This document shows positions 3,756 to 64,000 of a stretch of 64,000 bases of DNA, piece by piece. The stretch's first letter is position 1, and each line of letters starts with the position of its first letter. The position numbers and the translations under genes were made by a program. Where the stretch lies: contig CM126205.1 of the NCBI GenBank assembly GCA_052327205.1, positions 302,374,001 through 302,438,000 of the forward strand, read 5' to 3'. Under the pieces are notes generated by a model. It made no database searches and had not been told where the DNA came from. It saw only the letters and a program-made list of their open reading frames with translations. Source of the DNA: Somniosus microcephalus. Lineage: Eukaryota.

Positions 3756-3756
3756 T

Positions 3757-3767: not shown

Positions 3768-4338
3768 CAAGTTCGAACCTACCTGCAACCTCCTGAGGAT
3801 TCGTTCCTGGAGTTCAGTGGATTGGAGGTCAAGGCCAGAGACTCAGGCGTCGACCACGGGCAACCGCCCAGTCATCCAGCAGAGACTCGAGAATTGCGGG
3901 GGAGGCTGTCGAGAGCCAGGCTTGGCTTTCCAATCGAGGTGGTCCAGCGAAACGGGCTGGCAACAGGTAGCGCGCAGACCCTTCCCGGACAGCGGCGGGT
4001 TAGAGCCCGACCGAGCGGCACAGCAAAGAGCTGAGCAGCGTCGACAGGGGAGAGAGAGAGAGGGCAGAGCGCACAGGGCGCAGCCGGTGTTCAGGGGCCG
4101 AGCAGCGTCGAAGAGAGGGAGAGAGAGATGCACAGAAACCCACGAGGCACTGCCATTGCCACGAGGACCGCCGAGAGCGGCGTTGGCAGCAGCGCAGGAG
4201 AAGCGCGCAAAACCTACAGGGCGCCGCCATTGCCACGAGAACCGCCGGGAGCGGCATTGGCAGCAGCGGGGGAGGAAGGAAAGCACGGGAGACGCCATAT
4301 TAAGCCATTGGGAGACGCCATTTGAAACCACACCCAAA

Positions 4339-5520: not shown

Positions 5521-5833
5521 CACAGAATCACAGAATCTACAGTGCAGATAGAGGCCATTTCGGCCCATCGAGCCTGCACCGACACATATCCCACCCTATC
5601 CCCGTAACCCCACGTATTTAATCCCCTAACACTAAAGGTCAATTTATCATAGCCAAATCAACCTAACCTGCACATCTTTGGACTGTGGGAGGAAGCCGGA
5701 GCACCCGGAGGAAACCCACGCAGACACAGGGAGAATGTGCAAACTCCACACAGACAGTCGCCCGAGGCCAGATTTGAACCCGGGTCCCTGGCGCTGTGAG
5801 GCAACAGTGCTAACCACTATGCCACCGTGCCCC
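5521..5833 (-). mobile_element. tRNA-derived V-SINE (elasmobranch HE1-like) inserted in Gypsy pol
   Basis: The minus strand shows a tRNA head with A/B-box-like motifs, the V-domain (GTGTGGAGTTTGCACATTCTCCCTGTGTCTGCGTGGGTTTCCTCCGGGTGCTCCGG) and a CR1-type tail (ATTCTGTG)n. Confidence 0.9.
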
Positions 5834-5872
5834 CCTGGGTGACTGTCAAAGATCCTAACTGACGCGAAAGAA

Positions 5873-8596: not shown

Positions 8597-8691
8597 ATAG
8601 ACTATTTTCAGCTAATGTTGCATGTTAAAAGTGTTAATTGTAATTAGTTTGATATTTACTTGTTAAATGAGTGTTATGGTACTGTTAATCT

Positions 8692-8704
8692 AAAAGGGGA
8701 GGAA
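8692..8704 (+). promoter_or_regulatory. Polypurine tract
   Basis: AAAAGGGGAGGAA directly upstream of the 3' LTR. Confidence 0.85.
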
Positions 8705-8705
8705 T

Positions 8706-8896
8706 TGTAATGTATATACCTTTAAGGGGGGAACTATCTTTTACAGCTCATATATACTGCAGTACCGGCAGTGACCACACCTGTATATAGCACTGAGTAG
8801 TAATCTGTACAGATGAGTTCCCGTGTGAGCCACGTTGAGTAAACACCTGTGTACCGTTCTCCTGCAGTCTGTGTCTTATTATACACAGGCACAACA
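8706..8896 (+). repeat. 3' LTR
   Basis: Direct repeat of 3565-3755, followed by the TSD GCTTC. Confidence 0.95.
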
Positions 8897-12206: not shown

Positions 12207-13290
12207 TTAGGAGCAGCGATGTTCACTGAGTTGTTGACATACAACTTTGGCTGCAGGGTGATGTCGGATGCCTCCCACTGTAGCTGCATCCTCTGGGTGA
12301 TCAGCTTCTTCCTCTTCATGTGGTGGATAGTCCTCTTCATCAGTCGGCAACAGTAGCTCTCTCCATTGCGTGGCAAAGTTATGCAGGAGGAAGCACATCA
12401 CCACAATCCTCGCCACTCTCTCAGGGTTGCACTAAAGGCAACTCCAGACTGGTCTAGCCAGCGGAATTGTTGTTGAAGGACTCTTATTGACTGTTTGATG
12501 ACTGCTCTGGTTGAGCCATGGCATTGTTGTATCTGACCTCCGAAGGCATCTGTGGGTTTTGGAGTGGGATTCTCAGCCACGTCTGGAGGGGATATCTCTC
12601 GTCAGCTTGCAGCCAGCCTTGTCAAATAGAGGGGGAATGTAGGCATTATGAGAGATACCTGGAAAGTGGACATACACCTGCATGAACCATTGCCAGTGGT
12701 CATATATCAGCTGGTCATTAAGAGAGTGAAACTCTATTTCAGTTCATGAAGGTCCCAGGCTCATTGGCAGGAGCCCTGACATCCACATATGTGCTGTCTC
12801 TGGCACCCTGCACTTGTAGGAATCCTGCAATGGTTGCAAAACCCAGAGCCCTTTCTTGCTGGCTCTTGGGGTCCAAGATGAAGTCATTAACCCTGGCAAA
12901 CAGCACGTCTGTGACCTGCTTTATGCTGGAATGAACTGCAGCCTGACATACAGCATATGTCTCCAGCTGAAGCCTGGAATTATCCTGGTACATAGACATT
13001 CAGCACTGTGGTAACCTTAACTGCCACAGGAAATGCATTGCCAGCTCTGGTAGTGGACAGCAGCTCCTACCTGAAATGCCATCTCATGAGAAGCACAATC
13101 TCCTCCTACCCTGCTCCTCACTGAGGTTCAGGTAGCTCATTCTGGACCTGTAGAGCATATGACATTGGTAAGGCTGCCTGAAGCAGCTCTCCTCCTTCCT
13201 AGACTCCTTGCAGGGCCAAGTGTGGCTCTCTGAAGCTCCTCCACCTGTTGTTGCTGCTGGGCCTGTTTCTCCTTGCAGCCTGTAAGGGAT
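12207..13290 (-). pseudogene. Decayed Harbinger (HARBI1-like) transposase
   Basis: Fragments LYRSRMSYLNLSEEQGRRRLCF, VHSSIKQVTDVLFAR..GFATIAGFLQVQGARDSTYV, TRAVIKQSIRVLQQQFRWLDQSG and RIVVMCFLLHNFA align to 34085-35242. Many frameshifts. Probable terminus ...ATCGACCCC at about 13747. Confidence 0.9.
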
Positions 13291-28273: not shown

Positions 28274-28522
28274 ATACCCAGTCATCAGGGTCTACAGGCC
28301 AAGAAGGTTTTACTTAGACTTTACTGGCAGTGCCTCAGGAGGCTGCACTTCCTCCCAAAGAATATTGAAGAAGCATGTTAAGTGCTGGTTGAAAACCTGT
28401 AGCCCACTCCCATCAGGCAAACAGCATTGTCCCTACCAGTCAAGGTCACCATTGCCTTGAAATTCTTTGCAACTGGATCCTTCCATAGAGCATGAGGTGA
28501 CCTTTGTCACATTAGTCAGGCA
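28274..28522 (+). pseudogene. Harbinger transposase N-terminal remnant
   Basis: YPSHRVYRPRR..QCLRRLHF..PVKVTIALKFFATGSF..GDLCHISQ, assembled across frameshifts, matches VKVTVALNFYATGSF..GDIANISQ of 34085-35242. Confidence 0.8.
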
Positions 28523-31508: not shown

Positions 31509-34084
31509 CTGCTCTGCATCCATTGTTTTTTATCCTTAATATAAAGAACTTTGAAATGTCTTCTTGGACATAAGAAGCATGGTAAAAGTACATGTTTTTG
31601 TTGTTCTCTTTCTTACACATCGTTGGCTAGCAGTACCATGTAATGCTTCAAAATATCTGGCATATGTGTTTGGTAGGCATTATGAAGAAATGTAACAAAA
31701 ATTAAATAGTCAGTTAAACTAATATTAATCAATAATTGTTCATAATGAATCAGCTAGCACTCAATCACTAATCATCAAATGTCCTGATATGATCATAGTA
31801 CTCCTTACATACTTCAATAGCTCTCACCTATTAAGAGTTTCTCCTCTCTAAGTCAATTTTTTTATGATAATGAGCAATCATCTCAACAGAACCTAAGCTT
31901 TGATCCATATTAATTGTCTTGATCTTCAAAGACAAAGTCCCCACTTATTTTAGATGAATTTTACATTTTTTTTAAAGAATAATATGGAAATTAGTGCTAG
32001 TAATTAATTTTTTATTATGCGTCTCAAGTTTTGATAAGTGCAAGTTGATAACTGCATCTAGAATTCATTTCCAAATTTAATTAGGGAAAGCAGCACAAGA
32101 CAAAAATGTTCAGAGGCTATAGATTAAAGGCTATGACTTAAACCAAAACCTAATTTATACAGATAAACAGTAAAGTTTTAACACACTGTTTCATAGAGTT
32201 GTCAGCCTCAAAGAGTTGAGTGCCAGAATAACAGAGCATTTTTATTTAACCACATAAATGCTGGTGGAGAGCATGTTACTGCATTACAGAAAGCTCCAGA
32301 GTGTATATTCTTCATGATCTCTATTTGGCTTGTTTGTGAGGGCCAGATTTTTTTTTTTAAAAGCTTATTAACTAATAACACATGGTTCTTTCAATTTCAA
32401 ATAAAAATATAATTAGAAAAAATCATGTAGACAAACAGCAGTTAATGGAACAGTATAGTAAAATACGATATCTTAGTCCTTGCAGTTGGCTTGTACACAA
32501 TTAATCACACAGCTTATGTTTGGTCTGGAGTGCACAAGTCTTTGAAAAAATAATTGTATTTATCATGGGCTAGCAGTTTGAGAAGATGGTAGAATGTCTG
32601 CTTCGATACCAGCTGTTTATGGGTTTGAATCACGGCATTCGTCACCTCCAGTTTCAACTATTGATAGTTTATTCAGTTCAAAACCCTAAATATGTACCTC
32701 AAATCTTATTTCCAAAATAAATGTGCTATCCCGCTGTCAAGTAAACTTTACCAGTGGATGGTATCATAAGTGGAACATATAGCACAAGGAACATGTTGTG
32801 GATGTTATTAATGGATAAATCCACTGGGAGCTGGAGCAACATCAATTTGACAATTTTGCCTAGGAATTTAGAAATTCGAGCATAAAAGGAGGCCATTCAG
32901 CCTATCGCACCCATGCTGGTGTTAGCTCTTCCACTAGAGCTGTCTACTCTACTCCCATTTCCCTGCCCTATCTTCATATCCTTTTATTATATACTTGCTT
33001 TTCTAAAACTTATCCAATTCGCTTTTAAATCCTGTCATAAGCTCTGCCTGAATAGCCATTTTGATTTTAGATATTCCATGTTGCAATAACTCTTTGTATG
33101 AAAAAATGTTCTTCGAACTTCAGCTTCATTCATGTAACGATAATTGAGTCTATATCCCCTTTGTTATTAACCTGCCAACCAATGGAAACAATCATTTATT
33201 ATTTACTCTCCAAAAGCTTTCGTAATCTTAAAACCCTTCACCACAGGGCTATAGAGAGAGAGCAGGGGAATGGGACTAATTGGATAGCTCTTTCAAAGAG
33301 CCAACACAGACACGATAGGCCGGCGGTCCCTTTCTGTGCTGTATGATTCCATGATTCTTTCCTTAAACTTATTGGTTCCAGTAAAATACCCAATTTTTCA
33401 ACCTGTTCCATGGGATTCTTCCTATAACATTCAACAGACCAACTGTGACTAACCAATGTCTTGCATAAATTCAACATCACTTCCTTGCTTTTATATTCGA
33501 TGCCCCTATGTATAAAACCCAGAATCTCATTTTACTTTTCTATGACCTTTTCTACCCGCATACTCCTAATTTTTAAAGTTCTATGGGCTAGATTTTCAGT
33601 TGCTTGCGCCAGCAGTTAGCGCCTTAAGAGAAGTGATTTCCGGGCGCTATGCGTGTAGCGCCCGGGCGCAGCGCAGTTTGCGCCCCGCCCCAAATTAAGT
33701 TGCCCGTTAGCGCCGGCGCAAAGTTTAGCGCCCGCCCGGATGCGCGCGCAGAAAATGACGTCACATCCTCGTGCAACGCCCTTTGGCCGCCCCGATTGCA
33801 AACTTCAGTCGGACCGCCCCATTGTGCGGCGGGCGGCCGGAGCGTTTGGAAAAAGGAACGCAACACAACCAGCGCGGGCCCCGGGGGGCGCTAATTAAAG
33901 GGAACGTCCTCTCCAGTATAAAGGCCATCCATTATTTCAGAAAACAGTCTTGTGCAACGCATTTCTGGAGACACAACAAGGAGGATAGCTAACTGGTTTC
34001 AAGCAGCAAGAGCCAGGTATTTTTGGACTCAGGCAACAGCGCTGCAAGTGGCCATTTGGAAATTAGAGTGTTTGCCAGGATTTG

Positions 34085-35242
34085 ATGGGGGTTGCATGGG
34101 GTGCCAACGCGGAGCTGCAGCTCCATGTCCGTAGGGCTCGCAGACGTATTGTGAGAGGGGCAGCCCTGGCTAGAGGCAGAGGGGGCTACAGGCGTCGGCC
34201 ACGTAGGCCTTACCCAGTCAGGCTATACCGCCAGCAGCGCTCCTACCTAAACATGAGTGCCGCGCGATGTGTTAAAAGGCTCCGATTCCGGAAGGGGGTG
34301 ATTGCAGAGATCTGCCACCTGCTTCGCCGAGATCTGCGGCCAAAGCTCAGGTGCAGGACGTCTCTGTCGGTGGAAGTGAAGGTGACAGTGGCATTGAACT
34401 TCTATGCCACCGGCTCCTTCCAATACGCTGCTGGGGACATAGCAAACATCTCCCAGTACGGCGCGCATCGCTGCATCCGCCAGGTGACCGAAGCACTGTT
34501 CAGAAGGAGAAGCCAATTCATCTCCTTCCCCATGGCCCTGGAGAGCCAGCATCAGCGCGCATTGGGATTTTCCAGACTCGGGGAATTCCCCTTGGTGCAG
34601 GGCGCCATTGACTGTACGCATGTGGCTTTGCGGGCCCCTCTGGAGCATGGCGAGCAGTATCGCAACAGGAAGGGCTACCATTCTCTGAATGTGCAGCTGG
34701 TCTGTGACCACAAGCAGCGCATCATGGCAGTCAATGCCAGCTTCCCAGGCAGCAGCCACGATGCCTTTATCCTGCGGCAGAGTACTGTGCATGACATGTT
34801 CCAGGCACAGCCTCCCCCAAGAGGATGGCTACTCGGGGACAAAGGCTATCCTTTGTGCACCTGGCTCATGACCCCGCTCCGCGCGCCCAGGACCGCTGCT
34901 GAAGAGGCCTACAACGAGAGCCATCAAACCACCCGCAACATCATCGAGCTAACTATTGGGGTCCTCAAGCAGCGGTTCCGCTGCCTTGATCGCTCCGGAG
35001 GAGCTCTCCAGTATTCGCCGGACCGGGTCTCCCAATTTGTGGTGGTTTGCTGCATGCTACACAACCTGGCTATCCGCAGGACTCAGGCACTGCCACCTGA
35101 CGTTGGACCAGCACCTCAGGAGGAGGAGCAGGAGGAGCATGAGGAGGAGGAGGAGGAGGAGGAGGAGCAGGAGTACGTTCCCAGGAGGGAGCGACCAGGG
35201 CCAAGGGCCGCACGACGCCACCTTATTACACGGTACTTCTAA
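34085..35242 (+). CDS. Harbinger DDE transposase (HARBI1-like), 385 aa, intronless
   Basis: Motifs GAIDCTH, YRNRKGYHSLNVQLVCD, PGSSHD, GDKGYP, RNIIE..GVLKQRFRCL and CCMLHN, with an acidic C-terminal tail. No stops. Confidence 0.95.
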   Translation: MGVAWGANAELQLHVRRARRRIVRGAALARGRGGYRRRPRRPYPVRLYRQQRSYLNMSAARCVKRLRFRKGVIAEICHLLRRDLRPKLRCRTSLSVEVKVTVALNFYATGSFQYAAGDIANISQYGAHRCIRQVTEALFRRRSQFISFPMALESQHQRALGFSRLGEFPLVQGAIDCTHVALRAPLEHGEQYRNRKGYHSLNVQLVCDHKQRIMAVNASFPGSSHDAFILRQSTVHDMFQAQPPPRGWLLGDKGYPLCTWLMTPLRAPRTAAEEAYNESHQTTRNIIELTIGVLKQRFRCLDRSGGALQYSPDRVSQFVVVCCMLHNLAIRRTQALPPDVGPAPQEEEQEEHEEEEEEEEEQEYVPRRERPGPRAARRHLITRYF

Positions 35243-35605
35243 GCCCCCTGTCAGGGAATGGCCAGGGGCCATGAGGGAAGATGAATGCAGCCGCTCCGCA
35301 AGCCCTCAGCCGGCGAAGCCAACAAACACTAAGAAGAACAACCATGGAGACTGCATGAATAAAGATAATTTTTTATTAAACAAAAATGAAAAGCCCTTCC
35401 CACATGAATCCCCAAAAACAATAAACGGGCCCCACAAAAAGCCCAACAAACGACTCACTCCCACAAACTGGGGAGGAGCCACTCCACCTTTATTGAAACC
35501 GGGCCTCAACGTCGGCCTAACGCAAAAAAAAAGCCCTCCAAAAGCACAACCATGGGCAAAATAAAGATGGCCACCGCCATATTAAAGGAAAGCTGGCCAC
35601 ACCCT

Positions 35606-37708
35606 CTACTGAGTGGCCCGCGAGGGCGAGACCTTGGCCAGCATTTTGCCTCCCCTGCCCTGCCTGCTGCTCCTTCGCAAGCTCTGCCCAGTGGCTGCTG
35701 CGAGGCTGGGGGAAGGCGCCTGAGGCTCAGATGCCCTTCCGCCAGATGCCGCTGGGGGGTGGCCTACACGGCGTTTGGGCCTCGAGGGGCCGTCTCCTGA
35801 GTGGCGCGCCTGAGCCTGGCCACCATCAGCTGCAGCCGCTTGCCCTTGACGCCCCAGAGGGGGAATGGCGGCGACGGATGGTGCAATGTGGGCCAGCTGG
35901 CGTCTGGGATGCGCTGGCTGGTGCTGTGGCGCGGTGGCACTCGGCCGGGCCCGCACTGCAGGATCCGCAGCAATCAGCCGACGGCCGGCTTGCTGGGATG
36001 GTCCAGCGCGGCGCCTGCCCTGGCGATGCCTGCCTGAGACAGCGCGTGTGGCAGCAGTGAGTGGCCCTCTGGTCCTGGTGTGCGCGCGCATCACATCCGC
36101 CAGGGTCTTGACGGCATCAGTTAGCATGCGGCCAGTCGCGGCAGTTGCTGCCCCGAACTCGCGCACACTGGTCGCCAGCGACTCGATGGCCTCAGGCATG
36201 CGCCCCACCACGCTCATGAGCTCCGTGTGGCGCCGGTCCGAGTCGTCGGCCATCTGATCGAGCTTCCGCACCTCCTCCGAAGTGAAGGTGTCCGGACTGG
36301 AGTCGCGACTCTCCCGCTGGGGAGGAGGGGGCCGAACTAGGGGACCCTTGCCGCGTTGGTGACGGCGAGTGTGCCGAGCAGCAGCACTCCCCTCTGATCC
36401 TTCCCCCCTTTGGGGGGAAGGCCGCGGGCCACGCGCACGGCTGCTGGGTGGCTGGACGCCACTGGTCCCAGAAGCTGCATTGCCCTGCGACAGTTCCTCC
36501 AGGCACTCGTCCAGTGAGGAGGTGTCGAGCATTTCCTCCTCTCCTGCGGGACGTGACTGTTCCCCCGAAGGTCCGGCTTGCTCCTCCTCCTCCTCCTGGT
36601 TGGAGGTGCTGTCACTGGCAGCCTCAGGGTCCTGGTCGTCACCAGCTGAAAGCAGGAATGCACAAGAGTAGCTTCAGAGTGAGGAGACGGCGTCAGCGAG
36701 GGAGTTAGGACTGGTGGGATTCAGCGCATTGGTGGGACAGTGGCAAAGGAGGTAGCTCGGATGGGCCAGTGCGACGCGAGAGGGCCAAAAGGCGAGGTCC
36801 TTACCATTGCCGGGCAGTGGAGGGTCGGATACACCGCACGCTGTGGGGACAATCACACGTGCTCCCATGAGCACACACACGCGCTCCTCCAGCCGAGTGA
36901 GCTTCTGCAGCTTGGCGCGGCCACCCCTGGCACGGGCCTGGCGATTAAACGCTACTTTAGCCTGCAAGAGAAAGGACGGGCTGTAAGGGCGCAGTGAAGC
37001 CCTGATGTAGTGTGCACTGCCTCCCATGGTGGAATAGCTTGGACAGAGTGAAGCCCTGATGTAGTGTGCACTGCCTCCCATGGTGGAATAGCTTGGACAG
37101 AGTGAAGCCCTGATGTAGTGTGCACTGCCTCCCATGGTGGAATAGCTTGGACAGAGTGAAGCCCTGATGTAGTGTGCACTGCCTCCCATGGTGGAATAGC
37201 TTGGACAGAGTGAAGCCCTGATGTAGTGTGCACTGCCTCCCATGGTGGAATAGCTTGGACAGAGTGAAGCCCTGATGTAGTGTGCACTGCCTCCCATGGT
37301 GGAATAGCTTGGCCAAAGTGTAGAGTGCCGAATGGCCATTTGATGCTCATGACTGTCCCAATGCTGCTGGCTGAGGGCTGGCCAAAAGGACTTTCAGGTC
37401 CCTTTGCCCATCATGTCAGGTGTACATGCAAGAATGAGGAGGAGACTGGAAAGGCTACTCACCCTCACAATCCTGGTCAGATCGTTGTACTTCTTACGGC
37501 ATTGTGTGTGGGTCCTGGGGGCCTCGCCGGTGAATGTCACCCTCTGGGCGATCTGCTTCCAGGCTTTGGTGTAGTCGTGGTGGGTTGGATTCCTCCCACT
37601 GTCTGGAAACAAGATCTTGCGCCTCACCTCCAGAGCTGTGAGCATGATGTCCAGATCACCCTCTGAGAAGCGCAGGGCACGCTGACGGGCCTTCTCTGGC
37701 GTTGCCAT
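35606..37708 (-). CDS. Harbinger Myb/SANT-like DNA-binding protein (NAIF1-like); exons 37708-37463, 36961-36805, 36645-35606; 480 aa
   Basis: Exon 1 encodes RFSEGDL..AWKQIA..RTHTQCRKKYNDL. Introns are canonical (GTGAGT..TTGCAG, GTAAG..TTTCAG). The exon lengths 246+157+1040 nt join in frame without stops. Confidence 0.88.
36993..37312. repeat. Tandem array of about 6 identical 54-bp units in intron 1 of the Myb gene
   Basis: AGTGAAGCCCTGATGTAGTGTGCACTGCCTCCCATGGTGGAATAGCTTGGACAG starting at 36993, 37047, 37101, 37155, 37209 and 37263. Confidence 0.97.
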
Positions 37709-38234
37709 GACTCCCTGGGGCTGAGCAGTAGTGTTGAGGCCTCTTTGCAAGGCTGCAGTGTGCAGGGCGTGGCAGCAGACTAATTCGTCCCTTCCCCCTT
37801 TAAGAGCTGGTCGGCACCACGGGGTCTGCTGTCAGTGCAAAAATGACCGCACCCGTGCTGCGCCCCGCCTGGGCGCTATCCCTCTGGACCGCCGGCTTAG
37901 CGCCTAAAGAGAGTAGTGGAACGCCTCTTTTAGCGCTCCACCAACCTCTTAGGGCGAAGCCACTGAATTCCCGGCAACGGGGCGCTACTTTGGGGCGGGC
38001 GCTAACTTCGGGCGGGCGCTAAAGCTAGCGCCCCAAAACTGCCTAAACTGAAAATCTAGCCCTATATATCTGCACGCAAGATCTCTTTGTTCATCCACTC
38101 TTTCTTTCTTTTGATGTTCTTTTTCCAAAAATTTAATAATTGGCATTTCTCTGCACAGAACTGCATCTGCCATCTATTTGTCCACTTGGCCACCCTGCCC
38201 TTGTGCTCCTACAATCTCCGATAGTCTTCCTCAC

Positions 38235-41700: not shown

Positions 41701-42381
41701 ACTGCATTCCACAACGTAGCACAGGAACCAATGTGCTCCACAGGAGTATTTAATTATCAATATTTGCACTTAACCTTAGAACCTACAGTCCCAATCTTAC
41801 CCAGGTAGGTATCCACCTCTGTATAAAAGGTGTTGGCAAAGATGGCGCCAACTGCTTTTGATGGGGAACATTCAAGATATGGGCCTAGAAATTCAGTTGC
41901 GTCCGCCAGCCGTTAGCGCCATAAGAGGGGTAGATTTCCAGCGCTAGGCACTTAGCGCCCGGGCGCAGGCCGATCTGCGCCTACGCCCAACTTCAGTTGA
42001 CATTTAGCGCCGGCGCAAAGTGTTTGCGCCCGCTCAGCTGCGCGCGCAGCTTATGACGTCATTTCGTCGTGCAACGCTGTTTGTGCGCCCCAAACCGGAA
42101 ATTCAGTGGCGCCCGTCCAATGTGGGCGTGGCGCTGTTAAGAACTGTGAAGTGGAACGCAGCACAGGCCCTGCGGGCCTCAGGGAGCGCTAATTAAAGGG
42201 CACTTACACTGAACTATAAAGGCCAGCCATTTTGCTGCAATGACTTTAGTGCTTTGGATTTCTGGACAGAGACCAAGGAACAGACCTTCCTGATTTGGGA
42301 CAACATAGGAGAGGTATTTTTGGCTTCTGGCCAGAGCTTGGAACTTTCACTCATTGTGATTTCACTGTTTGCAAGTTTATT

Positions 42382-43523
42382 ATGGGGGCTGCATGGGGTT
42401 CCAACCCTCAGTTCCAGCATTATGTGCGAAGGGCTCGCAGACGCTGTGTGAGAGGGCCAGCCATGCCTAGACGCAGAGGGGCCATCAGGCGTCGGCAACG
42501 TAGGCCTTACCCACTCAGGGAATACCGGCAGCAGGTGTCCTATCTCACCATGACGCCGCGCATTGTGTTAAGAGGCTGCGCTTCAGAAGGGAGGTGGTTG
42601 CAGAGATCTGCCAGCTGCTTCACAGAGATCTGCGTCCACAGCTGATGTGCAGGACGTCTCTGTCGGTGGAAGTGAAGGTCACGGTGGCTCTGAACTTTTA
42701 TGCAAGCGGATCATTCCAAGCCGCTGCTGGGGACATAGCGAACATTTCCCAGTTTGCCGTGCATCGCTGCATCCGGCAGGTCACCGATGCCCTTTTCGCA
42801 AGGAGACACCAATTCATCTCCTTCCCCATGACCCTAGAGAGGCAGGAGCAGCGTGCAGTCGGATTTGCCAGGATCGCCGACTTCCCCATGGTGCAGGGCG
42901 CCATTGACTGCACGCATGTGGCTATGCGGGCACCTATCGACAATGCCGAGGATTACCGCAACCGGAAGGGCTACCATTCCCTCAATGTACAGCTGGTGTG
43001 TGACCACAGGCAGCGCATCCTAGCTGTCAATGCCCGCTTTCCAGGAAGCAGCCACGATGCATTTATCCTGCGCCAGACTACTGTGGCTGACATGTTCGAG
43101 GCACAGCCTCCACCAAGGGGATGGCTTATTGGGGACAAGGGCTACCCTTTGTGTACATGGCTCATGACCCCGCTCCGCGTGCCCAGGACCCCTGCGGAGG
43201 AGGCATACAACGAAGGCCATCAAGCCACAAGGAACATCATAGAGCAAACGATTGGCGTCCTCAAGCAACGGTTCCGCTGCCTGGATCGTTCCGGCGGATC
43301 TCTACAGTATTCGCCGGATAGAGTCTCCCAGTTCGTCGTCGTTTGCTGCATGCTGCACAACCTGGCTATCCGCAGGACTCAGGCACTGCCACCTCACGTT
43401 CAACCACCACCTCAGGAGGACGAGCAGGAGGACCATGAGGAGGAGGAGGAGGAGTACCAGCCCAGGAGGGAGCCACATGGTCCAAGGGCCGTCCGCCGGC
43501 AGCTTATTGAACGGCACTTCTAG
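42382..43523 (+). pseudogene. Harbinger transposase with a single 1-nt frameshift near 42554
   Basis: MGAAWG..RPYPLREYRQQVSYLTM in one frame and the rest (GAIDCTH, GDKGYP, RNIIE) in another. ATGAC-GCCGCG here versus ATGAGTGCCGCG in copy A. Confidence 0.9.
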
Positions 43524-43773
43524 GCCCCCTGTCAGGGAATGGCTTGTGGCAATGAACGCACCTGAATGCAGCCGCTCCGCAAGCCCTCAGCCGGTTAACG
43601 CAACAACCACTTGAAACATGACACCTGGACAAGCTGAATAAATAAAAAGCTTTATTTAACAAACTCAGGGCCCTTCCCACATGAAACAGAGAAACAGACA
43701 AGACCCCCAAAAAACAGTCAAAAACATATCTCACTCCCACAACCTGGGGAGGAATAACAAAACTTGTCAATAA

Positions 43774-43930
43774 CATTTGCCTTCATCCTCGGCCTTCCCA
43801 AAATAAGCCCCCCCCCCTCCAGAACACAACCACCCCCATATAAAAAAACATTTGCCTTCATCTTCGGCCTTCCCAAAATAAGCCCCCCCCCCCCCCCCAG
43901 AACACAAACACCCCCATATAAAAAAAACAG
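43774..43930. repeat. Tandem duplication (two units of about 75 bp) in the intergenic/3' UTR region of copy B
   Basis: CATTTGCCTTCATC.TCGGCCTTCCCAAAATAAG(C)nAGAACACAA.CACCCCCATATAAAAAAA occurs twice. Confidence 0.9.
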
Positions 43931-43943
43931 TTGGCAACACACT

Positions 43944-45992
43944 CTACTTGGTGTGCCGAGAGGGCGAGTCCTTGTGCAGGCTTCTCCGGCCCCTGCCCGA
44001 CCTGTTGCTCCGCCTCAACCTGGGCCCTGTGGGTGTGGCAAGGCTGGGGGAAGGCTCCTGAGGGGCACACTGCGTGATGGCAGATGCCCTTGGGGGTCGG
44101 CCTAGACGAGGTCCGGCCCTGGAGGGGCCGGCTGCTGACTGCTGCAGTTGTGGCTGGGCAGCATCAGTCTCTGCATCAGCTCGTCGCATCTTGGCTGGGG
44201 GAGTGGCAGTGGCGGCTGCAGCAATGGGGGCAAGCTGGCTGATGCCAGGCGCTCGCTGGTCGCCAGAGACACTGGCACTCGGCCGGGCTGGCACTGCAGC
44301 AAGCGCAGCAATCTGGTGGAGGCCAGACCGCTGTGCTGCAGCAGGGCGGCGGGTGCCCTGGCGATGCTTCCGTGACACCGCGAGTGTGGCAGAAGTGAGT
44401 GCCCGAACTGCCCTGGTCTGTGCCTGCATCAGATCAGCCAGTGTCTGCACGGCACCACTCATGAACTCACGACTCGCGTCCTGTGCTGCCGCGAGTTGGT
44501 CGACACCCCTGGCTTGTGCTGCCGTGAGTTGGTCGACACCCCTGGCCTGTGAGTCCCCGAAAGCGGCCACACTATGAGCCAGGGACTCAATGGCCTGAGG
44601 CATCTGTCCCACAACCCCCATGAACTCGTTGTGGCGCCGCTCCGAGGCCGCGGACATTTCATCAAGGTGGCGCACCTCCTGGGCGAGGACCGTCTCCGGA
44701 CTGGAGGGCGGACTCTCCCTCTGGGGAGAAGGCCGCCGAGCTGCCCGACCCTTCCCGCATGCCTGGACGCCACTGGGCCCAGCAACTGCCCTCCCCTGCA
44801 ACACTTCCCCCCTCTGGGGAGAAGGCAGCCGTGCTGCCCGACCCTTCCCGCGTGCCTGGACGCCACTGGGCCCAGCAACTGCCCTCCCCTGCAACACTTC
44901 CCCCCTCTGGGGAGAAGGCAGCCGTGCTGCCCGACCCTTCCCGCGTGCCTGGACGCCACTGGGCCCAGGAGCTACACCCCCCTGCAACACTTCCCCCTGG
45001 CTCTCCTCCAGGCAAGACGTCTCCCCTCCATTGCCATCCCCTGACGCGGATGAGGGTTCCCCCGAAGTGCCGCCTTCCTCTTGGTCCTCGTCGTCCTCCT
45101 CTTCCGAGGGACTGGCACTCTCAGCTTCATGGACCTCCTCCTCACCAGCTGAAAGCAGGAAGGCACAAGAGTAGCTTTAGAGTGAGGACAGGGCGTCAGC
45201 GAGGGAGGCATGAGTGGTGGCATTATGCGCATTGGTCGGACAGTGGCAAAGGATGTAGATCTGAAGCGCAAGGGGAACGAGAGAGGTCCAAACGGTCATG
45301 TCCTTACCATTGGGGCCCAGCACAGGGTCCGCATCACCAATAGCAACGGGGCCAACCACCCGGCCACGCATGAGTCGAGCCACGCGCTCCTCCAGCTCAC
45401 TGAGCTCCTGGAACTGGGCACGGCCTCCCCCGGTGACATTCCTGCTCTTCATATTCTGGGCCAGCTTGGCCTGCAAGAGAAAGGACGGCCTCTAAGTACA
45501 GTGTGGTGCCCTGTTGTTGTGTGCACTGCCTCCCATGGTGGAATAGCTTGGCCAGTGTGGTGCCCTGTTGTTGTGTGCACTGCCTCCCATGGTCGAATAG
45601 CTTGGCCAGTGTGTAAAGTGCAGAAAGTGCTATTGATGATCATGCCAGTGCCATAGCTGCGGGAGGAGGGATGGCCATTAGGCCTTTGAGGTCCCTTTGT
45701 CCATAATGTGAGGTGCACATGCAAGGATGAGGAGGACACTGGAAAGTCTACTCACCTTGACCAACCGAGTGAGGTCGTTGTACTTCTTGCGGCATTGGTC
45801 ACCAGTCCTGGGGACATCGCTGGTGGCTGACACCCTGTGGGCGATTTCCCTCCAGGCTCTCCTGAACTGCCTCCTGGGAGCCTTCTTGCCACTGTCCGGG
45901 CACAAGATCTCTCTTCTCTTTTCCAAACCCTTAAGCAGCACCCACAAAGCAGGCTCTGAGAAGCGCTGCGCTCGTTCACGGGCCTTCTGCAT
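43944..45992 (-). CDS. Harbinger Myb/SANT-like protein; exons 45992-45756, 45470-45308, 45148-43944; 534 aa
   Basis: RFSEPAL..AWREIA..RTGDQCRKKYNDL. Same splice sites and phases as copy A. 237+163+1205 nt join in frame. Confidence 0.88.
44713..44996 (-). repeat. Three in-frame 90-bp coding repeats in Myb exon 3
   Basis: A 30-aa unit resembling LQGRAVAGPSGVQARGKGRAARLPSPQRGEV occurs three times. Confidence 0.92.
45499..45612. repeat. Two 54-bp tandem units in intron 1, homologous to the array in copy A
   Basis: CAGTGTGGTGCCCTGTTGTTGTGTGCACTGCCTCCCATGGTGGAATAGCTTGGC at 45499 and 45553. Confidence 0.95.
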
Positions 45993-47281
45993 GGCTTCAG
46001 GCGCTATTTGGGTCCACCAGCAGTGTTGAGGCCTAGCTGCAGGGCTCCACTATCCAGGGCGTGGCAGCAGACAAAGTCGACCCTTCCCCCTTTAAGAGCT
46101 GGCCGGCGTCAGGGTGTCTGCTGTCAATCAAAACATGACCGCATCTGCGCTGCGCCCGGCCTCGGCGTTATCAGTCCGCACCGCCGGCTTAGCGCCTAAA
46201 GATAGGAGTGCAACGCCAGTTTCAGTGCTCGCCCAAACTCCTTGGCCAAATCTACTGAATTTCGGCGAAGTGGCCTACACGTTCCGGCGGGCGCTAACTT
46301 TAGCGACCGCCCGACTTTAGCGCCCCAAAAGTGGCGCGACGGAATTTCTAGGCCATGTACTATAGGGAAAACAAAATCTAACTTCTAGTCCCACCTTAGG
46401 CTTGTTAATTTTGTACTCGTCTTCTAATGCTTTGATCATAGTTTAAGTTAAATAACTGAAAGTAAAATATTCAAATTCACAGTTTACAGCTGATACCAGA
46501 AAGTATTCAGCTGCTACTTAGCTTGTGGCTACTTTCTGCCAGCAATGGGGCCTGCTATGCACAAATCTGAATATTCTTCCCATGATATTCAAGTTATTAT
46601 TTTCACTCAACCACTAGTGCTGTTAAAACCAACACAGATATATGAGAACCTTAACTTTTCAGTTCCCATCCAGGAATATATGGAAGGAATGAGAAAAACC
46701 AGAATCAAACCAAATGTGAACTGCAGTGTAAATCCCCAAAGAGGACACATTGTCCAATTTCCAGCTCTCAAAGCATTAAAAAAACATTTTGAATTCTTCT
46801 CACCTCTAGAGACTCATATGACACAAACATCAGCCTAGTTTGGTTTCGATTTTGCATATCCATATTAAATGTTTGACTCTGCCACACTCAGCATGGGGTT
46901 TCTCATAAGAGATTCCATATGGTTACTTAAAGCTAAATGAACCATTATGTCAGGTTGCCCATATACAAACTGTACTGATGTTCACAGCCATTGTTATTTA
47001 CAACTCTATGCTAAGCTAATAACTGGGGTCTTAGAAATTTAATTCTGTTCTCCCACTGATTAGAGAATACAATCTAGGCCATTCTTTAGCATACGGCTTT
47101 TCATACTATCTCAATTCTACACAGTAGCTCTGACAAGGCTAAATTGTCCTACTCTTCACAGTTTTTTTGTGTATTTTATTTATGTTTTCTCCTCTTCACC
47201 TCGTTAGACTTACCTATACCACATAACATTCCTTGGTCTAGAAGGCATTTTGAGAAAGCACTGGCCTTATCTTGGTCTATT

Positions 47282-56770: not shown

Positions 56771-59367
56771 TATATACAGCAAGAACAAATGTGGACCCAG
56801 CATTGACCTCTGGGATACACCACTTGCAACCCTTCTCCAATATGAGCAGCACCCATTTACTTCTTTGTTTTCTGACCATAAACCAAACCAACTATCTATC
56901 CATATTGGTACATTTTCTCTTTCAGCATATACTTGAATTTTTCTAACAAGCCTCCTGTAAGACATGTGATCGAACACCTTCTGGAAATTTATCTACACTA
57001 CATCTACTGTATTCCCTTTATCGACTAAATCAGTCACCTCTTCAAATAACCAAATTAAATTTGCTAAACAGAACTTACCTTTAACAAATGCATGTTGGCT
57101 GTCCTTGATTAGCCTAGGCAGCTCTAAATGATTACTAATTTTATTTCAAATTATGGATTTGAAAAGGATGTTTTTAACCTGTCTACCTGGTGGGAATGAG
57201 ACGGGTGAGTGGTTAAATGGTAGACTGGTGCTTCCCGCTGCATTCCCGGTTGCTATTTTAACTTCTGGGTTTTCAGCAGCATGGGGGCCGCTTGCTATAG
57301 GCAGGCCTCGTTAATATCTAAAAGTAAGGGTCCGATGATGATCCTGAAGCAATATTAACTATCTGCCGCACCGGTGACACTCAACGCTGGGCATCCCAGT
57401 GAAACCTGGCAGGCAGGGTCAGTCAAAAGAAACCCAAGTAAGTTTTAAATTTCAATTTTTTTTAAGGGTTCCCGCTGGACCAGGAGGATCAGACACCAAG
57501 GCCGGAATTTTCCCTACTGAGTCGGGTCGGGTGCGTGCGGCCCACGTAACAGGTCGATGTATTGATCAGAGCGCCTTTAGGGTAATGGCCCTTATTAAAA
57601 CAGGCATGCGCATTTCCCGGCCCTATTAAATGGTGCGGGTCTGATGACATCATCGATTACTAATTTCCAGCGGTGATATTTAAAGTAGCCTTGGGCACAT
57701 TGCATTTGAAGGTAGATGCAGAGGTGTGGAGGGAGTATTGGAGAGGAGTGTGTTGTTGCTGAGAAATAGAAAAATGAGTTCACAAAGACAGAGGGCTGCA
57801 CCCCACTTTTTGGATGAATCCCTATATATTCTTCTGGAGGGAGTCAGAGCACGCAGGGAGGTCCTCTTACCTGCTGATGGGTGGAAGAGACATCCCCAAG
57901 AAACCAAAAGGACATAGCTCCAAATTGCTGAGGAGGTCAGCAGCAGAGATGTCATCAGGAGGACATGGGTGCAGTGCCAGAAGCTCTTCAATGATCTGAT
58001 GAGATCAGGAAAGGTGAGTGCAAAGCCACACTCACCTTCATTCTTTTTTTAATTCATTTATGGGGTGTGGGCATCGCAGGCAAGGCCAGCATTTATTGCC
58101 CATCCCTAATTGCCCTTGAGAAGTTCTTGATGTGCCTGTCACCACATCCCCATCACTCTGCCTTCCCAAGCCTACTTCTGCACATTATTACTCATACCAA
58201 CATACCTTGCACGTCCACCCATCCCTCTCTCTATGCACATACTTACATCCCCATCTGACTAACCACCCCTCACACTCACCCTCATCCTAATGTAATCATA
58301 CCAAGTAACATCAAAGAAAGAGGCCATTTGACATTGGCATCACACTACCTTATAGTCACCCTCTACAGATGTAACCCACACATTCCTTACACTTATGCCA
58401 TCACTCTCACTCAAACGTCTCGTCTTTCCCTCCTTGCAGGAGAAGAGAGCCAACAACAACAGGGAGAGAGAGAGAACCGGAGGTGGCCCTCCAGTCTTCA
58501 GTACTTTGACTGTAGCAGAGGAAGTGGCCCTGGCGGTGTCAAGAGTTGCAGAGCTGCTGGCGGTGGGAGACAGAGCGGGGGGGACCTCTCAGCAACCTAG
58601 TGACAGAATTACATCTCATACAGCCACATGGCATACAGCAGTCACTCATATGTTGACTGATGTCAGCAGCCAGTGAATGTTCATCATGTGCATAATGGCA
58701 TCGTTACCCATTCTTAATATAACATTTCTAAATCTTCTTTTTACTCTCCCACAGGTCCATCAAGAGCCCCCCACCCCACCATCCAAGCGGAGGAGGAAGA
58801 CGACTCCTCATAGGAACCTCCAGCCTCTGAGGGCGCACCATCAGCAGACCCAAGTGCACCCAGCACCAGCGCAGATACGCACACCTCGGTGGGTTCTATG
58901 CGAGATAGAGTAGTGTTGTCACCTGGTGTCTCACACTTCACAAGTGAGCAACAGTAGATGGTGGAGACATGGACAGCAGTGGAGACTCCTTGCCGGAGGG
59001 TGCAGGACGCTCCAAGCTCTGCTTAGTTGCATGCAGGCGCTGAACCTCGGGAGCCATCAAGAAAGAGGGTGATCCTGGAGGGGCATAAGAAATGCAGGAG
59101 GCTATGGCAGGTTTTGCAGCCACGATGTCTGCAAATGTGCAGAGAATGGAGGAGTCCATCTCCAACATGAGCCCCACCATGTCACAGGCGATGGCGATGA
59201 TATGCTCTTCCATGGAAAGGATGGCCACCTGCATGGAGCAGCTAATGCGCCACTCACATGAGCACATGCTAGCTATGGAGAACAGAAGGCAGAGGCTCAT
59301 AGATCTCCTATCAAGGAGGGATCTAAATATAGACTTGGGTCCTCATGGCCCCACTGCTGTGCAGCAA

Positions 59368-59784
59368 GGTGCCAGGGTTAAGGACATCTCCTCTGGGCTG
59401 GAAAGAAACTTGCAGTGGGAGGGGGTGGATCCAGTTGTCGTGGTCCATGTTGGTACAAACGACGTAGATAGGACTAGGAAGCCGGTTCTGTTAAAGGAGT
59501 ATGAGCAGCTAGGGGTCAAATTAAAAAACAGAACCTCAAGGGTAATAATCTCTGGATTATTACCTGAGCCACGAGCGAATTTGGCTAGGGCAAATAAAAT
59601 TAGACAGTTAAATGCGTGGCTCAAAGACTGGTGTGGGAGAAATGGGTTTTGCTTCCTGGGACACTGGCACCAGTACTGGGGCAGGAGGGAGCTGTTCCAT
59701 TGGGATGGGCTTCACTTGGCCAGTGCTGGGACTAGAGTCCTGGCAGATCATATAACTAGGGCTGTAGAGAGGGCTTTAAACTAA
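59368..59784 (+). CDS. CR1 ORF1 C-terminal SGNH esterase domain (partial, fused in frame to upstream Harbinger sequence)
   Basis: GARVKD, VHVGTND and DGLHL correspond to SGNH hydrolase blocks II, III and V. Confidence 0.9.
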   Translation, partial: GARVKDISSGLERNLQWEGVDPVVVVHVGTNDVDRTRKPVLLKEYEQLGVKLKNRTSRVIISGLLPEPRANLARANKIRQLNAWLKDWCGRNGFCFLGHWHQYWGRRELFHWDGLHLASAGTRVLADHITRAVERALN

Positions 59785-59822
59785 CTAGTGGGGGGGAGGT
59801 TCCTAGAGAGCAAATAATAAAA

Positions 59823-62774
59823 ATGACAACAGAGAAGGCCATAGACTTAGGTAGCAGTGGGGAAATTAAAAACCAGAGCATGTCAGGAAGGGGCAGAAGG
59901 TATGGAGTAAAAGGTAAAGTAATAAAAAGGGCAAAAGCAGGAACTAAGTGTCACAAAACATATTTGAAAGTTCTCTATCTGAATGCACGTAGCATTCGTA
60001 ACAAAATAGATGAGTTAATGGCACAAATAACTACATATGGGTATGATCTTGTGGCCATTACAGAAACATGGCTGCAGGGTGACAATGCCTGGGAATTAAA
60101 CATACCAGGTTATTTAACGATCAGGAAGGACAGGCAGGAAGGAAGGGGAGGTGGGGTGGCTATGTTAATAAAGGAAGCAATCACTGTAATACAGAGAAAT
60201 GATATTGGGTCAAAAGATCTGGATAATGAAACAGTTTGGGTGGAGGTAAGGAATAATAAGGGGAAAAAAACACTAGTGGGTGTAGTCTATAGGCCTCCGA
60301 ACAGTTGCAACTCTGTTGGACGGAGTATCAATCAGGAAATAGTTGAGGCTTGTAATAAGGGAACATCTATAATTATGGGGGATTTTAACTATCATATTAA
60401 TTGGACAAATCAAATTGGGCAGGGCTGCCTTGAGGATGAGTTCATTGAGTGTATTAGGGATGGGTTCCTTGAGCAGTATGTAACTGAACCGACCAGGGGG
60501 CAAGCAACCTTAGATCTGGTCCTGTGTAACGAGACAGGATTAATTAAAAATGTCCTAGTAAAGGATCCCCTTGGAATGAGTGACCATAACATGGTTGAAT
60601 TCCATATTCAATTAGAGGGTGAGAAGGTTGGATCTCAAACAAGCATGCTAAGCTTGAATAAAGGAGACTATGAAGGTATGAGAGCGGAATTGAGTAGAGT
60701 GGATTGGGAAAATAGATTAAAGGGTAAGACGATACATGATCAGTGGTGTACATTTAAGGAGTTATTTTACAACTTTGAAAAAAAATATATTCCACTGAGA
60801 AGAAAAGGGTGTAAAAGAAAAGACAGCCATCCGTGGCTAAGTAAAGAAATTAAGGATAGTATTCGACTAAAAACAAGGGCCTATAAGGTAGCCAAATCTA
60901 GTGGGAGGATAGAGGATTGGGAAAATTTTAAAAGACAGCAAAAAATAACAAAAAGATTGATTAAGAAAGGAAAGATAGATTATGAAAGTAAATTAGCAAA
61001 AAATATAAAAACAGATAGTAAGAGTTTTTATAGTTATAGAAAAAGAAAAAGGGTGGCTAAAGTAAATGTTGGTCCCTTAGAGGATGAGACCGGGAAATTA
61101 ATGGTGGGAAATATGGAGATGGCAAAAACACTGAATGAATATTTTGTATCAGTCTTTACAGTAGAGGACACTAAGAATATCCCAACACTGGACAAACAGG
61201 GGGCTATAGGGGGGGAGGAGCTAAACACGATCAAAATCACTAAGGAAGTGGTACTCGGTAAAATAATGGGACTCAAGGCGGATAAATCACCTGGACCTGA
61301 TGGCTTACATCCTAGGGTCTTGAGGGAAGTGGCAGTAGGGATTGTGGATGCATTGGTAATAATTTTCCAAAACTCCCTGGACTCAGCAAAGGTCCCGGCA
61401 GACTGGAAAACTGCTAATGTAACACCATTATTTAAAAAGGGCAGTAGACAGAAGGCTGGAAACTATAGACTGGTTAGCCTAACATCTGTGGTAGGTAAAA
61501 TTTTGGAGTCCATTATTAAGGAGACAGTAACAGGACATTTGGATAATCATAATTTAATACGACAAAGTCAGCATGGTTTTATGAAGGGGAAGTCATGTTT
61601 GACAAATTTGCTGGAGTTCTTTGAGGAAGTAACATATAGGGTGGATAAAGGGGAACCAGTGGACGTAGTGTATTTAGACTTCCAAAAGGCATTTGACAAG
61701 GTGCCACACAAAAGATTATTGCTTAAGATAAAAAATCACGGGATTGGGGGTAATATTCTTGCATGGATAGAGGATTGGCTATCTAACAGAAGGCAGAGAG
61801 TTGGGATAAATTGTTCATTCTCAGACTGGCAATCAGTAACTAGTGGTGTTCCGCAGGGGTCAGTGCTGGGTCCCCAACTCTTTACAATCTATATTAACGA
61901 TTTGGAGGAGGGGACCGAGTGTAACATATCAAAGTTTGCAGATGATACTAAGATGGGAGGGAAAGTAGTGAGTGAGGAGGACATAAAAAACCTGCAAGGG
62001 GACATAGACAGGCTAAGTAAGTGGGCAGAGATTTGGCAGATGGAATACAATACTGGAAAGTGTGAGGTTATGCACTTTGGCAGGAAAAATCGTAGAGCAA
62101 GTTATTACCTTAATGGCAAGAAACTGGAAAGTACTGAAGTACAAAGGGATCTGGGGGTCCTGGTGCACAAAACTCAAAAGGTTAGTATGCAGGTGCAGCA
62201 AGTGATTAAGAAGGCCAATGGAATGTTGGCTTTCATTGCTAGGGGGATAGAATATAAAAATAGGGAGGTATTGCTTCAGTTGTACAAGGTATTGGTGAGA
62301 CCGCACCTGGAATACTGCATACAGTTTTGGTGTCCATACTTAAGAAAAGACATGCTTGCTCTCGAGTCAGTACAAAAAAGGTTCACTCGGTTAATCCCGG
62401 GGATGAGGGGATGGACATATGAGGAGAGGTTGAGTAGATTGGGACTCTACTCATTGGAGTTCAGAAAAATGAGTGGCGATCTTATTGAAACATATAAGAT
62501 TGTGAAGGGGTTGGATCGGGTGGATGCGGGGAGGATGGTCCCGATGATGGGTGAAACTAGAACTAGGGGGCATAGTCTTAGAATAAGGGGCTGCTCTTTC
62601 AAAACTGAGATGAGGAGGAACTACTTCACTCAGAGGGTGGTAGGTCCATGGAATATGCTGCCCCAAAAAGCTGTAGAAGCTACATCATTACATAACTTTA
62701 AAACAGAAATAGACAGTTTCCTAGAAGCAAAGGGAATTAAGGGTTACGGGGAGCGGGCAGGAATTTGGACATGA
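59823..62774 (+). CDS. CR1 ORF2: APE endonuclease and reverse transcriptase, 983 aa, uninterrupted
   Basis: YLNARS, TETWL, YRPPN, GDFN, LDL and SDH (endonuclease); SPGPDG, YLDFQKAFDKVPH, GVPQGSVLGP and FADD (RT). Confidence 0.97.
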   Translation: MTTEKAIDLGSSGEIKNQSMSGRGRRYGVKGKVIKRAKAGTKCHKTYLKVLYLNARSIRNKIDELMAQITTYGYDLVAITETWLQGDNAWELNIPGYLTIRKDRQEGRGGGVAMLIKEAITVIQRNDIGSKDLDNETVWVEVRNNKGKKTLVGVVYRPPNSCNSVGRSINQEIVEACNKGTSIIMGDFNYHINWTNQIGQGCLEDEFIECIRDGFLEQYVTEPTRGQATLDLVLCNETGLIKNVLVKDPLGMSDHNMVEFHIQLEGEKVGSQTSMLSLNKGDYEGMRAELSRVDWENRLKGKTIHDQWCTFKELFYNFEKKYIPLRRKGCKRKDSHPWLSKEIKDSIRLKTRAYKVAKSSGRIEDWENFKRQQKITKRLIKKGKIDYESKLAKNIKTDSKSFYSYRKRKRVAKVNVGPLEDETGKLMVGNMEMAKTLNEYFVSVFTVEDTKNIPTLDKQGAIGGEELNTIKITKEVVLGKIMGLKADKSPGPDGLHPRVLREVAVGIVDALVIIFQNSLDSAKVPADWKTANVTPLFKKGSRQKAGNYRLVSLTSVVGKILESIIKETVTGHLDNHNLIRQSQHGFMKGKSCLTNLLEFFEEVTYRVDKGEPVDVVYLDFQKAFDKVPHKRLLLKIKNHGIGGNILAWIEDWLSNRRQRVGINCSFSDWQSVTSGVPQGSVLGPQLFTIYINDLEEGTECNISKFADDTKMGGKVVSEEDIKNLQGDIDRLSKWAEIWQMEYNTGKCEVMHFGRKNRRASYYLNGKKLESTEVQRDLGVLVHKTQKVSMQVQQVIKKANGMLAFIARGIEYKNREVLLQLYKVLVRPHLEYCIQFWCPYLRKDMLALESVQKRFTRLIPGMRGWTYEERLSRLGLYSLEFRKMSGDLIETYKIVKGLDRVDAGRMVPMMGETRTRGHSLRIRGCSFKTEMRRNYFTQRVVGPWNMLPQKAVEATSLHNFKTEIDSFLEAKGIKGYGERAGIWT

Positions 62775-63663
62775 GTCTAGGTTCGGATCGGACATGGCCC
62801 TGTGGGTAGCGGAGCGGGCCCAGGGGCCGTGTAGCCTGATCCTGCTCCTATTTCGTGTGTTTAATTCTGTTAGATTCAGGAGATGGTTCTGTGATAGTGG
62901 ATTGGCGGTTAGGATCAGATCAGCCATGATCTTATTGAATGGCGGAGCAGGCTCGAGGGGCCAATTGGCCTACTCCTGCTCCTATTTCTTATGTTCTTAT
63001 GTTCTTATGTTCTCCAGTTCCTTGCTAGCAGGGAAGTGCGAGTGACCCATGAGAGGGATGATGGTGAGAGGGAACATGGAAGTTGGGGCTTCTCTCAAAG
63101 CACTTCCACTTCTCCCCATTGCCTCCCCCTCACCCCATTCAGAGCCCCAGATGCTTCCTCGAATCGCGATGGCTGAATCTGCCTCTGCACAGTCGCAGGA
63201 GGAGCAGACTTTGGCGGGGCCATCACAGGCTCCAAAACACAGAGGACATCCACTAAAAGCGTCAAAGCATTTGCAGCAGGGAAGTGAGCAGCCTGCCTCT
63301 ACCTCTTCTGAAGCCATAGGGGGTGCACCTCGTAGAAGCACACATAAAAGAAAAATGACGCAAAAGTAGATGCACAAGGGTAAGCACATGAGTGTATAAA
63401 GGAGTGTTATTGTTAAGGTTCTGTTACTGTTATCACACATATAAAAGTATTTATTTTCACCACTTTCGAGTCCTGCCCATTTTTGGCTGCTACTTTGAAA
63501 GTGGCTTTGTGAGTTGCAGTGAATGGTGAGACATAATGTAACCTCCAGCAATGGGGGTCAGTGTGAAAGGAATGGCTTGTTCATTGTAGGGATGCTTTAT
63601 GGTGTTGTTGGGGGTGGGAACTGGGCACAGCATGTGGCAGCCATATGGGTGCAATGCAGGAAG

Positions 63664-64000
63664 TTAAGTAAATCTGGCCATGATGAGGCCATCCCTGACC
63701 TCCCGGGCAACAATGTGCTCCGCTGCTGGTGCCATCTAGACCTCAGGTTCCTCCTGCTCCTCCTCCTTGTCTTCCAGCTGATGCTCCTCCTTCTCTTCCT
63801 CTGAAGAGGCTGTGCGCTCTGCACTTTGCTCCTCATGCTGCTCTAATCCTCATTGTTGCACCCTATTGTGCAGGGTGTAGCAGACGACGATGATTCTGGA
63901 TACCCTGGCTGGTGCATACTGATGGGCTCCTCCAGATCTGTCACAGCATCTGAAGCGCATCTTCAGCATGCCTATTGCTTGCTCTATGACACATCTGGTG
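63664..64000 (-). pseudogene. Harbinger transposase C-terminus (copy D), degenerate
   Basis: The minus strand reads TRCVIEQAIGMLKMRFRCCDRSGGAHQYAPARVSRIIVVCYTLHN, then an acidic tract, then REVRDGLIMARFT*. Confidence 0.88.

Follow-up and report, generated by a model that had tools for sequence, protein, structure and literature searches.

In this work we describe a Harbinger transposon of 4,478 bp, located at 33585 to 38062 of a 64,000-nucleotide stretch of the Somniosus microcephalus assembly GCA_052327205.1 (contig CM126205.1, positions 302,374,001 to 302,438,000, forward strand), which we call the window. We consider it probable, at roughly 0.7, that the window copy is intact and sits on the youngest branch of a Harbinger family with two genes and very many copies, which spread through the genome in successive waves, likely has working machinery and, when it excises, likely takes along three bases of the site that it leaves. 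The notable points are the scale of the family, the place of the window copy in the youngest branch together with an empty site elsewhere, and a one-sided swap of the triplets flanking the element.

The element is bounded by perfect 17-bp terminal inverted repeats (TIRs; 33585..33601 on the + strand and 38046..38062 on the - strand) and by the target-site duplication (TSD) TAT at 33582..33584 and 38063..38065, the left TAT matching the right one. The observed/expected CpG ratio was 0.65 in the element and 1.04 in its left arm, compared with 0.30-0.40 in the flanks. The transposase open reading frame (ORF) of 385 aa (34085..35242, + strand) matched DDE_Tnp_4 in a domain search with E=1.4e-39, and D176, D252 and E288, which we take to be its catalytic triad, are kept in 86/86 intact copies; its poly-E tail lacks one codon that most sister copies have. 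The Myb partner is encoded on the - strand by three exons (37463..37708, 36805..36961 and 35606..36645) that GT-AG junctions join into a 480-aa product with one stop, at its end. Of the GT-AG pairs lying up to about 5 nt from the proposed junctions, tried in every combination, only 37463/36961 together with 36805/36645 gave an in-frame product. Exon 1 carries a Myb/SANT-like domain and matched Myb_DNA-bind_5 with E=3.4e-11, while exon 3 has acidic, coiled and low-complexity parts and includes the private change R430H (at 35760). Thus the perfect TIRs and TSD, the retained CpGs, the uninterrupted transposase with D-D-E residues and the cleanly spliceable Myb/SANT partner that an earlier note had read from this DNA were all confirmed.

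The closest proteins in the databases are from elasmobranchs (Pristiophorus, Heptranchias, Mobula and Narcine), with up to 66% identity, and none above 66% identity to the transposase was present among the matches listed. These best matches are labelled 'putative nuclease HARBI1', which is what the domesticated gene is called, although they are many-copy and transposase-like proteins. Taken by themselves, they make a shark or ray the probable host. A search with Myb exon 1 for longer homologues returned 42 candidates, none at E<=0.001, and was uninformative, and a search for a related solved structure of the transposase found none, the two weak matches being to the acidic tail.

Regarding the size of the family, we found 3,170 exact matches to an exon-2 family marker in the 6.45-Gb assembly and 0 to the reversed control. 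The marker permitted both the short and the longer exon-2 forms, and it misses diverged copies. A genome search with the window element gave 1,870 candidates, and the 33 that were scored were all full-length, about 100% identical and located on many chromosomes. Our position sample consisted of 98 of the first 100 marker matches listed in chromosome order, all from one chromosome (C1), the other two being obtained separately. Both ends were found in 95/98 copies; two were cut by the edge of the retrieved region and one has a further copy nested in it. The two ORFs and the four splice sites were all kept in 68/98 (95% interval 59-78%), with a divergence from the window copy of 0.05-3%, and applying this fraction to the 3,170 matches gives an estimate, extrapolated from one chromosome, of about 2,200 intact copies genome-wide. 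The 3,170 matches correspond to around 14 Mb (3,170 x 4.4 kb) of mostly intact autonomous elements within a 6.4-Gb genome.

The marker of the youngest subfamily had 428 matches in the assembly, and from 100 matches listed we obtained a youngest sample of 81 new copies (15 were already in the set and 4 were left out). In this sample 80/81 copies had both ends and 76/81 both ORFs, and all were within 0.30% of the window copy; pooling the two marker samples, both ends were found in 175/179 matches. The near-identical intact copies sit at unlinked sites, and one group of 21 copies and another of 8 show no internal differences apart from a variable-number tandem repeat (VNTR) and the poly-E tract. 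The tree of copies is ladder-like, with the window copy at the tip. Compared with the group of 8, the window copy has two differences, R430H in the Myb tail and one E less. The earlier note had presented the window copy as a natural candidate for a live element and had called for a count of near-identical copies. The count supports an intact, very young element that is a good candidate for a two-component assay; it removes the special standing of the window copy, which belongs to a set of about 400 intact and nearly identical copies and has the private differences just mentioned.

The VNTR lies in intron 1 of the Myb gene (36990..37316) and consists of 54-bp units in tandem, 6 in the window copy and 1-11 across 208 copies; the unit count differs even between otherwise identical copies, so this repeat changes far faster than point changes accumulate. 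In one place of C1 (16.61-16.65 Mb, L063-L067) copies lie in a short satellite and were later amplified with it at a spacing of 4,774 bp.

Exon 2 deserves separate treatment, because the earlier note had warned of a possible 6-nt deletion there. The window copy reads ARARGG and is two residues shorter than a sister-family copy in the window (copy B) and three diverged Harbinger copies from retrieved flanks, which read TGGG; exon 2 of a further copy, D, to which the earlier note had also assigned TGGG, was not detected by tblastn. The deletion is thus real relative to copy B, and the worry that it impairs the protein is largely lifted, since the short form is family-wide and the region seems constrained. 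It was present in 100/100 exon-2-marker matches listed and in every family copy examined (0-3% divergence), including 80 picked by an unrelated marker, so the loss of two residues is probably tolerated. We then compared, among 177 intact copies, the variants shared by at least 4 copies with the private ones. The dN/dS of the shared variants was 0.47 for the transposase and 0.44 for the Myb gene, against 0.93 and 0.71 for the private ones (combined Fisher p=0.034). The shared variants comprised 9 nonsynonymous and 8 synonymous changes in the transposase core, 8 and 13 in Myb codons 1-134 (dN/dS 0.20), and 16 and 3 in the Myb tail, which is unconstrained. Therefore, purifying selection appears to act on the transposase core and Myb codons 1-134 and to spare the Myb tail.

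The earlier note had proposed to look for insertion polymorphism, and a candidate case came from two further samples, X1 (organism A) and X2 (organism B), whose contigs contain the site in its empty state with a single TAT (the small-share rows X11-X18 were left out); the contig is 327 nt long in each sample, skips 4,481 bases and shows 0 differences over 313 flank bases. We considered a paralogous empty site as the source of these contigs and did not find one in the assembly, where none of 40 scored matches per flank was a second near-identical match to the flanks of the window site. The empty site may represent the pre-insertion state or a precise excision. X2 shows the letters of the youngest subfamily at several marker places and X1 hardly does: the remainder at marker 37781 was 11,125/304,385 in X2 against 143/303,445 in X1, figures that reflect depth and not copy number. 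This suggests that organism B belongs to the same species as the window assembly, the letters shared with the assembly being the sole basis for it, and that organism A is a sister species.

Regarding the target site, 141 distinct matched sites gave the palindrome T-W-A-R-A-S-W-C [W-W-W] G-W-S-T-Y-T-W-A, with AAACAC...GTGTTT as the plurality sequence. The core is loose: 32 triplets occur among 148 matched copies, with W as the middle base in 136/148, TWA in 26/148 and CWG in 4, and two random matched triplets agree in 6% of cases, which is looser than in the described members of PIF/Harbinger. The trinucleotides flanking the element were matched in 148/208 copies and unmatched in 60/208 (33/95 in the position sample and 21/80 in the youngest sample). 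Point mutation was rejected as the source of the mismatches, as it predicts 1.8/128 and 39/128 were observed; furthermore, the mismatch rate does not rise with the age of the copies. For 23 mismatched copies we found a paralogue of the target without the insertion, one of which (for L146) was dropped because the match was to its own tandem junction. In the 22 remaining cases the left triplet was foreign in 10 and the right one in 6, whereas in the other 6 neither side fits. The foreign-triplet swaps replace exactly three bases and no insertion or deletion accompanies them. As a control, 43/60 matched copies agreed with their target paralogue; the 17/60 that differ are at about the level of paralogue divergence, so a class of copies with donor bases on both sides is not supported. 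Further cases come from pairs of copies at the same site (L011, L108, L117, L178 and L206), and the target of L018 is CAG in 82/83 paralogue matches. Mismatches of a single base were in excess (32/60 against 29% expected, p=7.5e-5), as would be expected if near-complementary overhangs were kept more often.

The mechanism that we propose takes its first steps from work on Harbinger3_DR and on Pong/mPing. The Myb protein would bind the element ends and recruit the transposase, which would make a staggered cut across the 3-bp duplications; the excised element would then bear 3-nt overhangs from the donor site, and the old site would close without a footprint. The family would read the flanking palindrome (AAACAC-nnn-GTGTTT-like) and tolerate many 3-bp cores, and thus a donor overhang would rarely match the new target. 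Repair would mostly swap the overhang for target bases, giving a perfect duplication, but in about one event out of three or four the overhang would stay on one side. We think it probable that donor overhangs are the source of the mismatched triplets. A precedent comes from the rice system Ping/Pong/mPing. It is likewise a two-protein system (PMC4561436, PMC11254759, PMC2836001); mPing makes a staggered cut across its TSDs (PMC4561436) and carries the donor TTA/TAA to sites cut by Cas9, whereas its free insertions keep intact duplications (PMC11254759), as follows from its fixed core. The loose core of the shark family, unlike that of mPing, appears to expose the carry-over in 60/208 natural insertions, and the simplest reading would be that the family carries donor bases as mPing does. 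Overhangs derived from the flanks and seamless repair of the donor are also described for piggyBac, which differs in belonging to another superfamily and in its single protein, strict TTAA target and hairpin intermediate (PMC7351741).

Several side observations concern the target sites. CAG recurs on the right of mismatched copies (among L167, L170, L185, L088, L018 and L174) and in two copies the foreign triplet on the left is AGG, both being rare among matched duplications; this was noticed post hoc, as was the idea that a G next to the TIR at the donor site (CWG-like) may favour excision. Four copies (L075, L125, L007 and L146) are inserted in or right beside other Harbinger copies; subterminal and terminal sequence of the element itself fits the target palindrome. 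In five sets of copies (L189/L204/L206/L100, L115/L091/L174, L117/L140/L175, L203/L219/L108 and L171/L234) separate insertions hit an identical base of dispersed repeats, and many insertions lie in a repeat tail of the (TATGACTC)n type.

A number of results weigh against the reading given above. Regarding the flanks, 6/22 mismatched copies fit neither side, several of the assignments lean on a single paralogue, and no paralogue match was found for 37/60 mismatched copies in the screen of retrieved DNA. The sharing of foreign trinucleotides by close relatives was a weak test (p=0.02-0.28 over six variants), and no donor-daughter pair was identified among the copies examined. Foreign triplets have G beside the TIR in 35/120 cases against 52/296 for matched ones (p=0.011, post hoc), which a simple donor model does not predict. 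The copy haplotypes are mosaic, and L064 is a recombinant linking two places in one satellite; at least some mismatches therefore have causes other than a donor overhang. The mosaic haplotypes, L064, the G bias and the 37 copies with no paralogue match would all suit an explanation of the unmatched flanks by recombination or gene conversion between copies, by repair filler or by assembly joins. We regard this as rather unlikely in general, because the 16 resolved cases show a single target repeat running on through the two flanks, with a replacement of exactly three bases, a pattern that crossovers and mis-joins would not yield, and because left and right ends are affected about equally.

Regarding the activity of the family, a search of sequencing runs listed no RNA set with the element. 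The two RNA runs X23 and X24 gave 3,952 and 4,938 reads aligned to the element, but these cover the introns and both strands and exit both TIRs into varied flanks. No splice joint was found in either run at a setting of 3 reads and a 5% share, so the junctions 37463/36961 and 36805/36645, for which RNA evidence had been sought, were not recovered. At the youngest-subfamily marker 37781 only 0/44 and 8/82 reads lacked the older letter; the reads derive mostly from older copies and the pattern fits passive read-through. Furthermore, the youngest subfamily has a mean of 1.2 private changes per 4,051 bases, and with the rate of 7e-10 per generation of another species, the epaulette shark (PMC10587355), this gives an age of around 4e5 generations (2e5-2e6), or less if CpG changes (54/144 of the private ones) are faster. 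A single copy without mutations could have an age of 3.5e5 generations, and a polymorphic site can last as long. The selection test, too, was non-significant for each gene (p=0.19 and 0.12), with small samples. These data do not establish present-day activity or spliced expression for what the earlier note had put forward as a candidate live element. The age, the read-through RNA and the CpG transitions, a sign of methylation, are what one would expect of a burst that is recent on the shark time scale and now silenced or extinct, its copies being intact only through slow shark mutation. We take this as a possible but somewhat doubtful account, since 31/80 youngest copies have no private change and the variance of private changes (2.3) exceeds the mean, which points to ages spread down to very young, and since the subfamily ladder indicates repeated renewal; moreover, the RNA tissues are unspecified and 24-31% of each run was read. 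It could also be that the Myb protein with the short exon 2 is impaired and the family is mobilised in trans by TGGG-type Myb proteins of related families. The TGGG form kept in copy B and the three other diverged copies and a loose end in X1 at 36930, compatible with the longer form, would agree with this, but the short form of all copies examined and the constraint on Myb codons 1-134, in contrast to the tail, make it very improbable. Weighing all this, we think it quite likely that the family was recently mobile with competent proteins, and the chances that it is still jumping in the germ line today seem to us about even. More tentative, and slightly below even, is the full proposal of a Harbinger that still jumps and survives through a ladder of autonomous subfamilies, about 2,000 of its copies being intact, and that would stamp three donor bases into the genome in about one jump out of three or four.

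On every feature tested the family is a canonical PIF/Harbinger: it has the HARBI1-type DDE_Tnp_4 transposase, the Myb/SANT gene, the TIRs, the 3-bp TSD and an extended palindromic target. The same two genes (DDE transposase and Myb-like), TIRs, 3-bp TSD and palindrome characterise Harbinger3_DR/Harbinger3N_DR of zebrafish, the only vertebrate Harbinger shown to transpose in the consulted literature, which needed reconstruction (PMC3016246, PMC2836001, PMC9179366). Its published target, AAACAC-CWG-GTCTTT, AAACACCWGGTCTTT (PMC3016246), is nearly that of the shark family, in which the core is relaxed to mostly W-W-W. The shark family is natural and not reconstructed, with thousands of two-ORF copies that are known here by sequence. 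Intact two-ORF copies in large number were, however, already published for a natural Harbinger of vertebrates, Harbinger-Snek of sea kraits, with 269 such copies in L. colubrina and possible ongoing activity (PMC8437027), so the element cannot be framed as unique in this respect. Harbinger-Snek was acquired horizontally in a single burst and has many solo-ORF and short derivatives, whereas the shark family has its larger estimated number of intact copies, a subfamily ladder and homologues across elasmobranchs. PMC9179366 reported no Harbinger in the elephant shark and called for examining other cartilaginous fish; the family belongs to a group whose sole examined species was reported without them. 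Our literature search, with most subscription papers outside it, found no account of mismatched Harbinger TSDs or of a one-sided triplet swap, and no shark Harbinger or natural active vertebrate Harbinger like this family.

The family offers natural, unrepaired ORFs with a target preference of 15-19 bp and, if our reading is true, a ready-made sequence-preferring gene-transfer system, together with a natural record, at the scale of a genome, of how overhangs are carried over during free transposition, which could be used for tracing donors. The one-sided three-base swaps make the staggered-cut model of Harbinger ends testable in free transposition, and it follows from them that excision does not leave such sites seamless. 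Annotation that filters on TSDs would lose around 30% of the real copies, and this is worth considering.

Regarding the remaining features of the element, the left arm (33602..33916) is CpG-rich and has subterminal TTAGCGCC repeats at 33616, 33707 and 33725 and, inverted, at 33887; it is likely the region that the Myb protein binds. TATA-like sequences are predicted 5' of the transposase (33917..33924, + strand, exact in 206/208 copies) and 5' of the Myb gene (37797..37806, - strand, exact in 201/208), and between the two genes lie predicted converging poly(A)-like signals (35358..35377), with AATAAA on the + strand at 35358 and on the - strand at 35372. The promoter and poly(A) motifs of the earlier note are thus present, with a function that is predicted. 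The 5' untranslated region of the transposase may contain a 62-nt GT-AG intron (34017..34078, + strand), with similar signals in copy B.

The window contains other elements as well. Copy B (41882-46352) is a full-length Harbinger of a sister family with about 78% DNA and 80% transposase identity; it has a frameshift near transposase codon 58, the TGGG-type exon 2, one damaged base in the right TIR and 93-bp repeats in exon 3. A decayed Harbinger occupies 57786-64000, with Myb exon 1 on the + strand and the end of the transposase on the - strand at the window edge, and it is interrupted by a CR1-like LINE (long interspersed nuclear element) with a 983-aa ORF2 (59823-62774) and an ORF1-like GDSL domain. 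At 3565-8896 there is a long terminal repeat (LTR) retrotransposon, whose LTR-like repeats are 96% identical and whose long ORFs, at 4339-5262 and 5906-8596, are gag- and pol-like, and old degenerate remnants of Harbinger transposases are found at 12288-13179 and 28328-28519.

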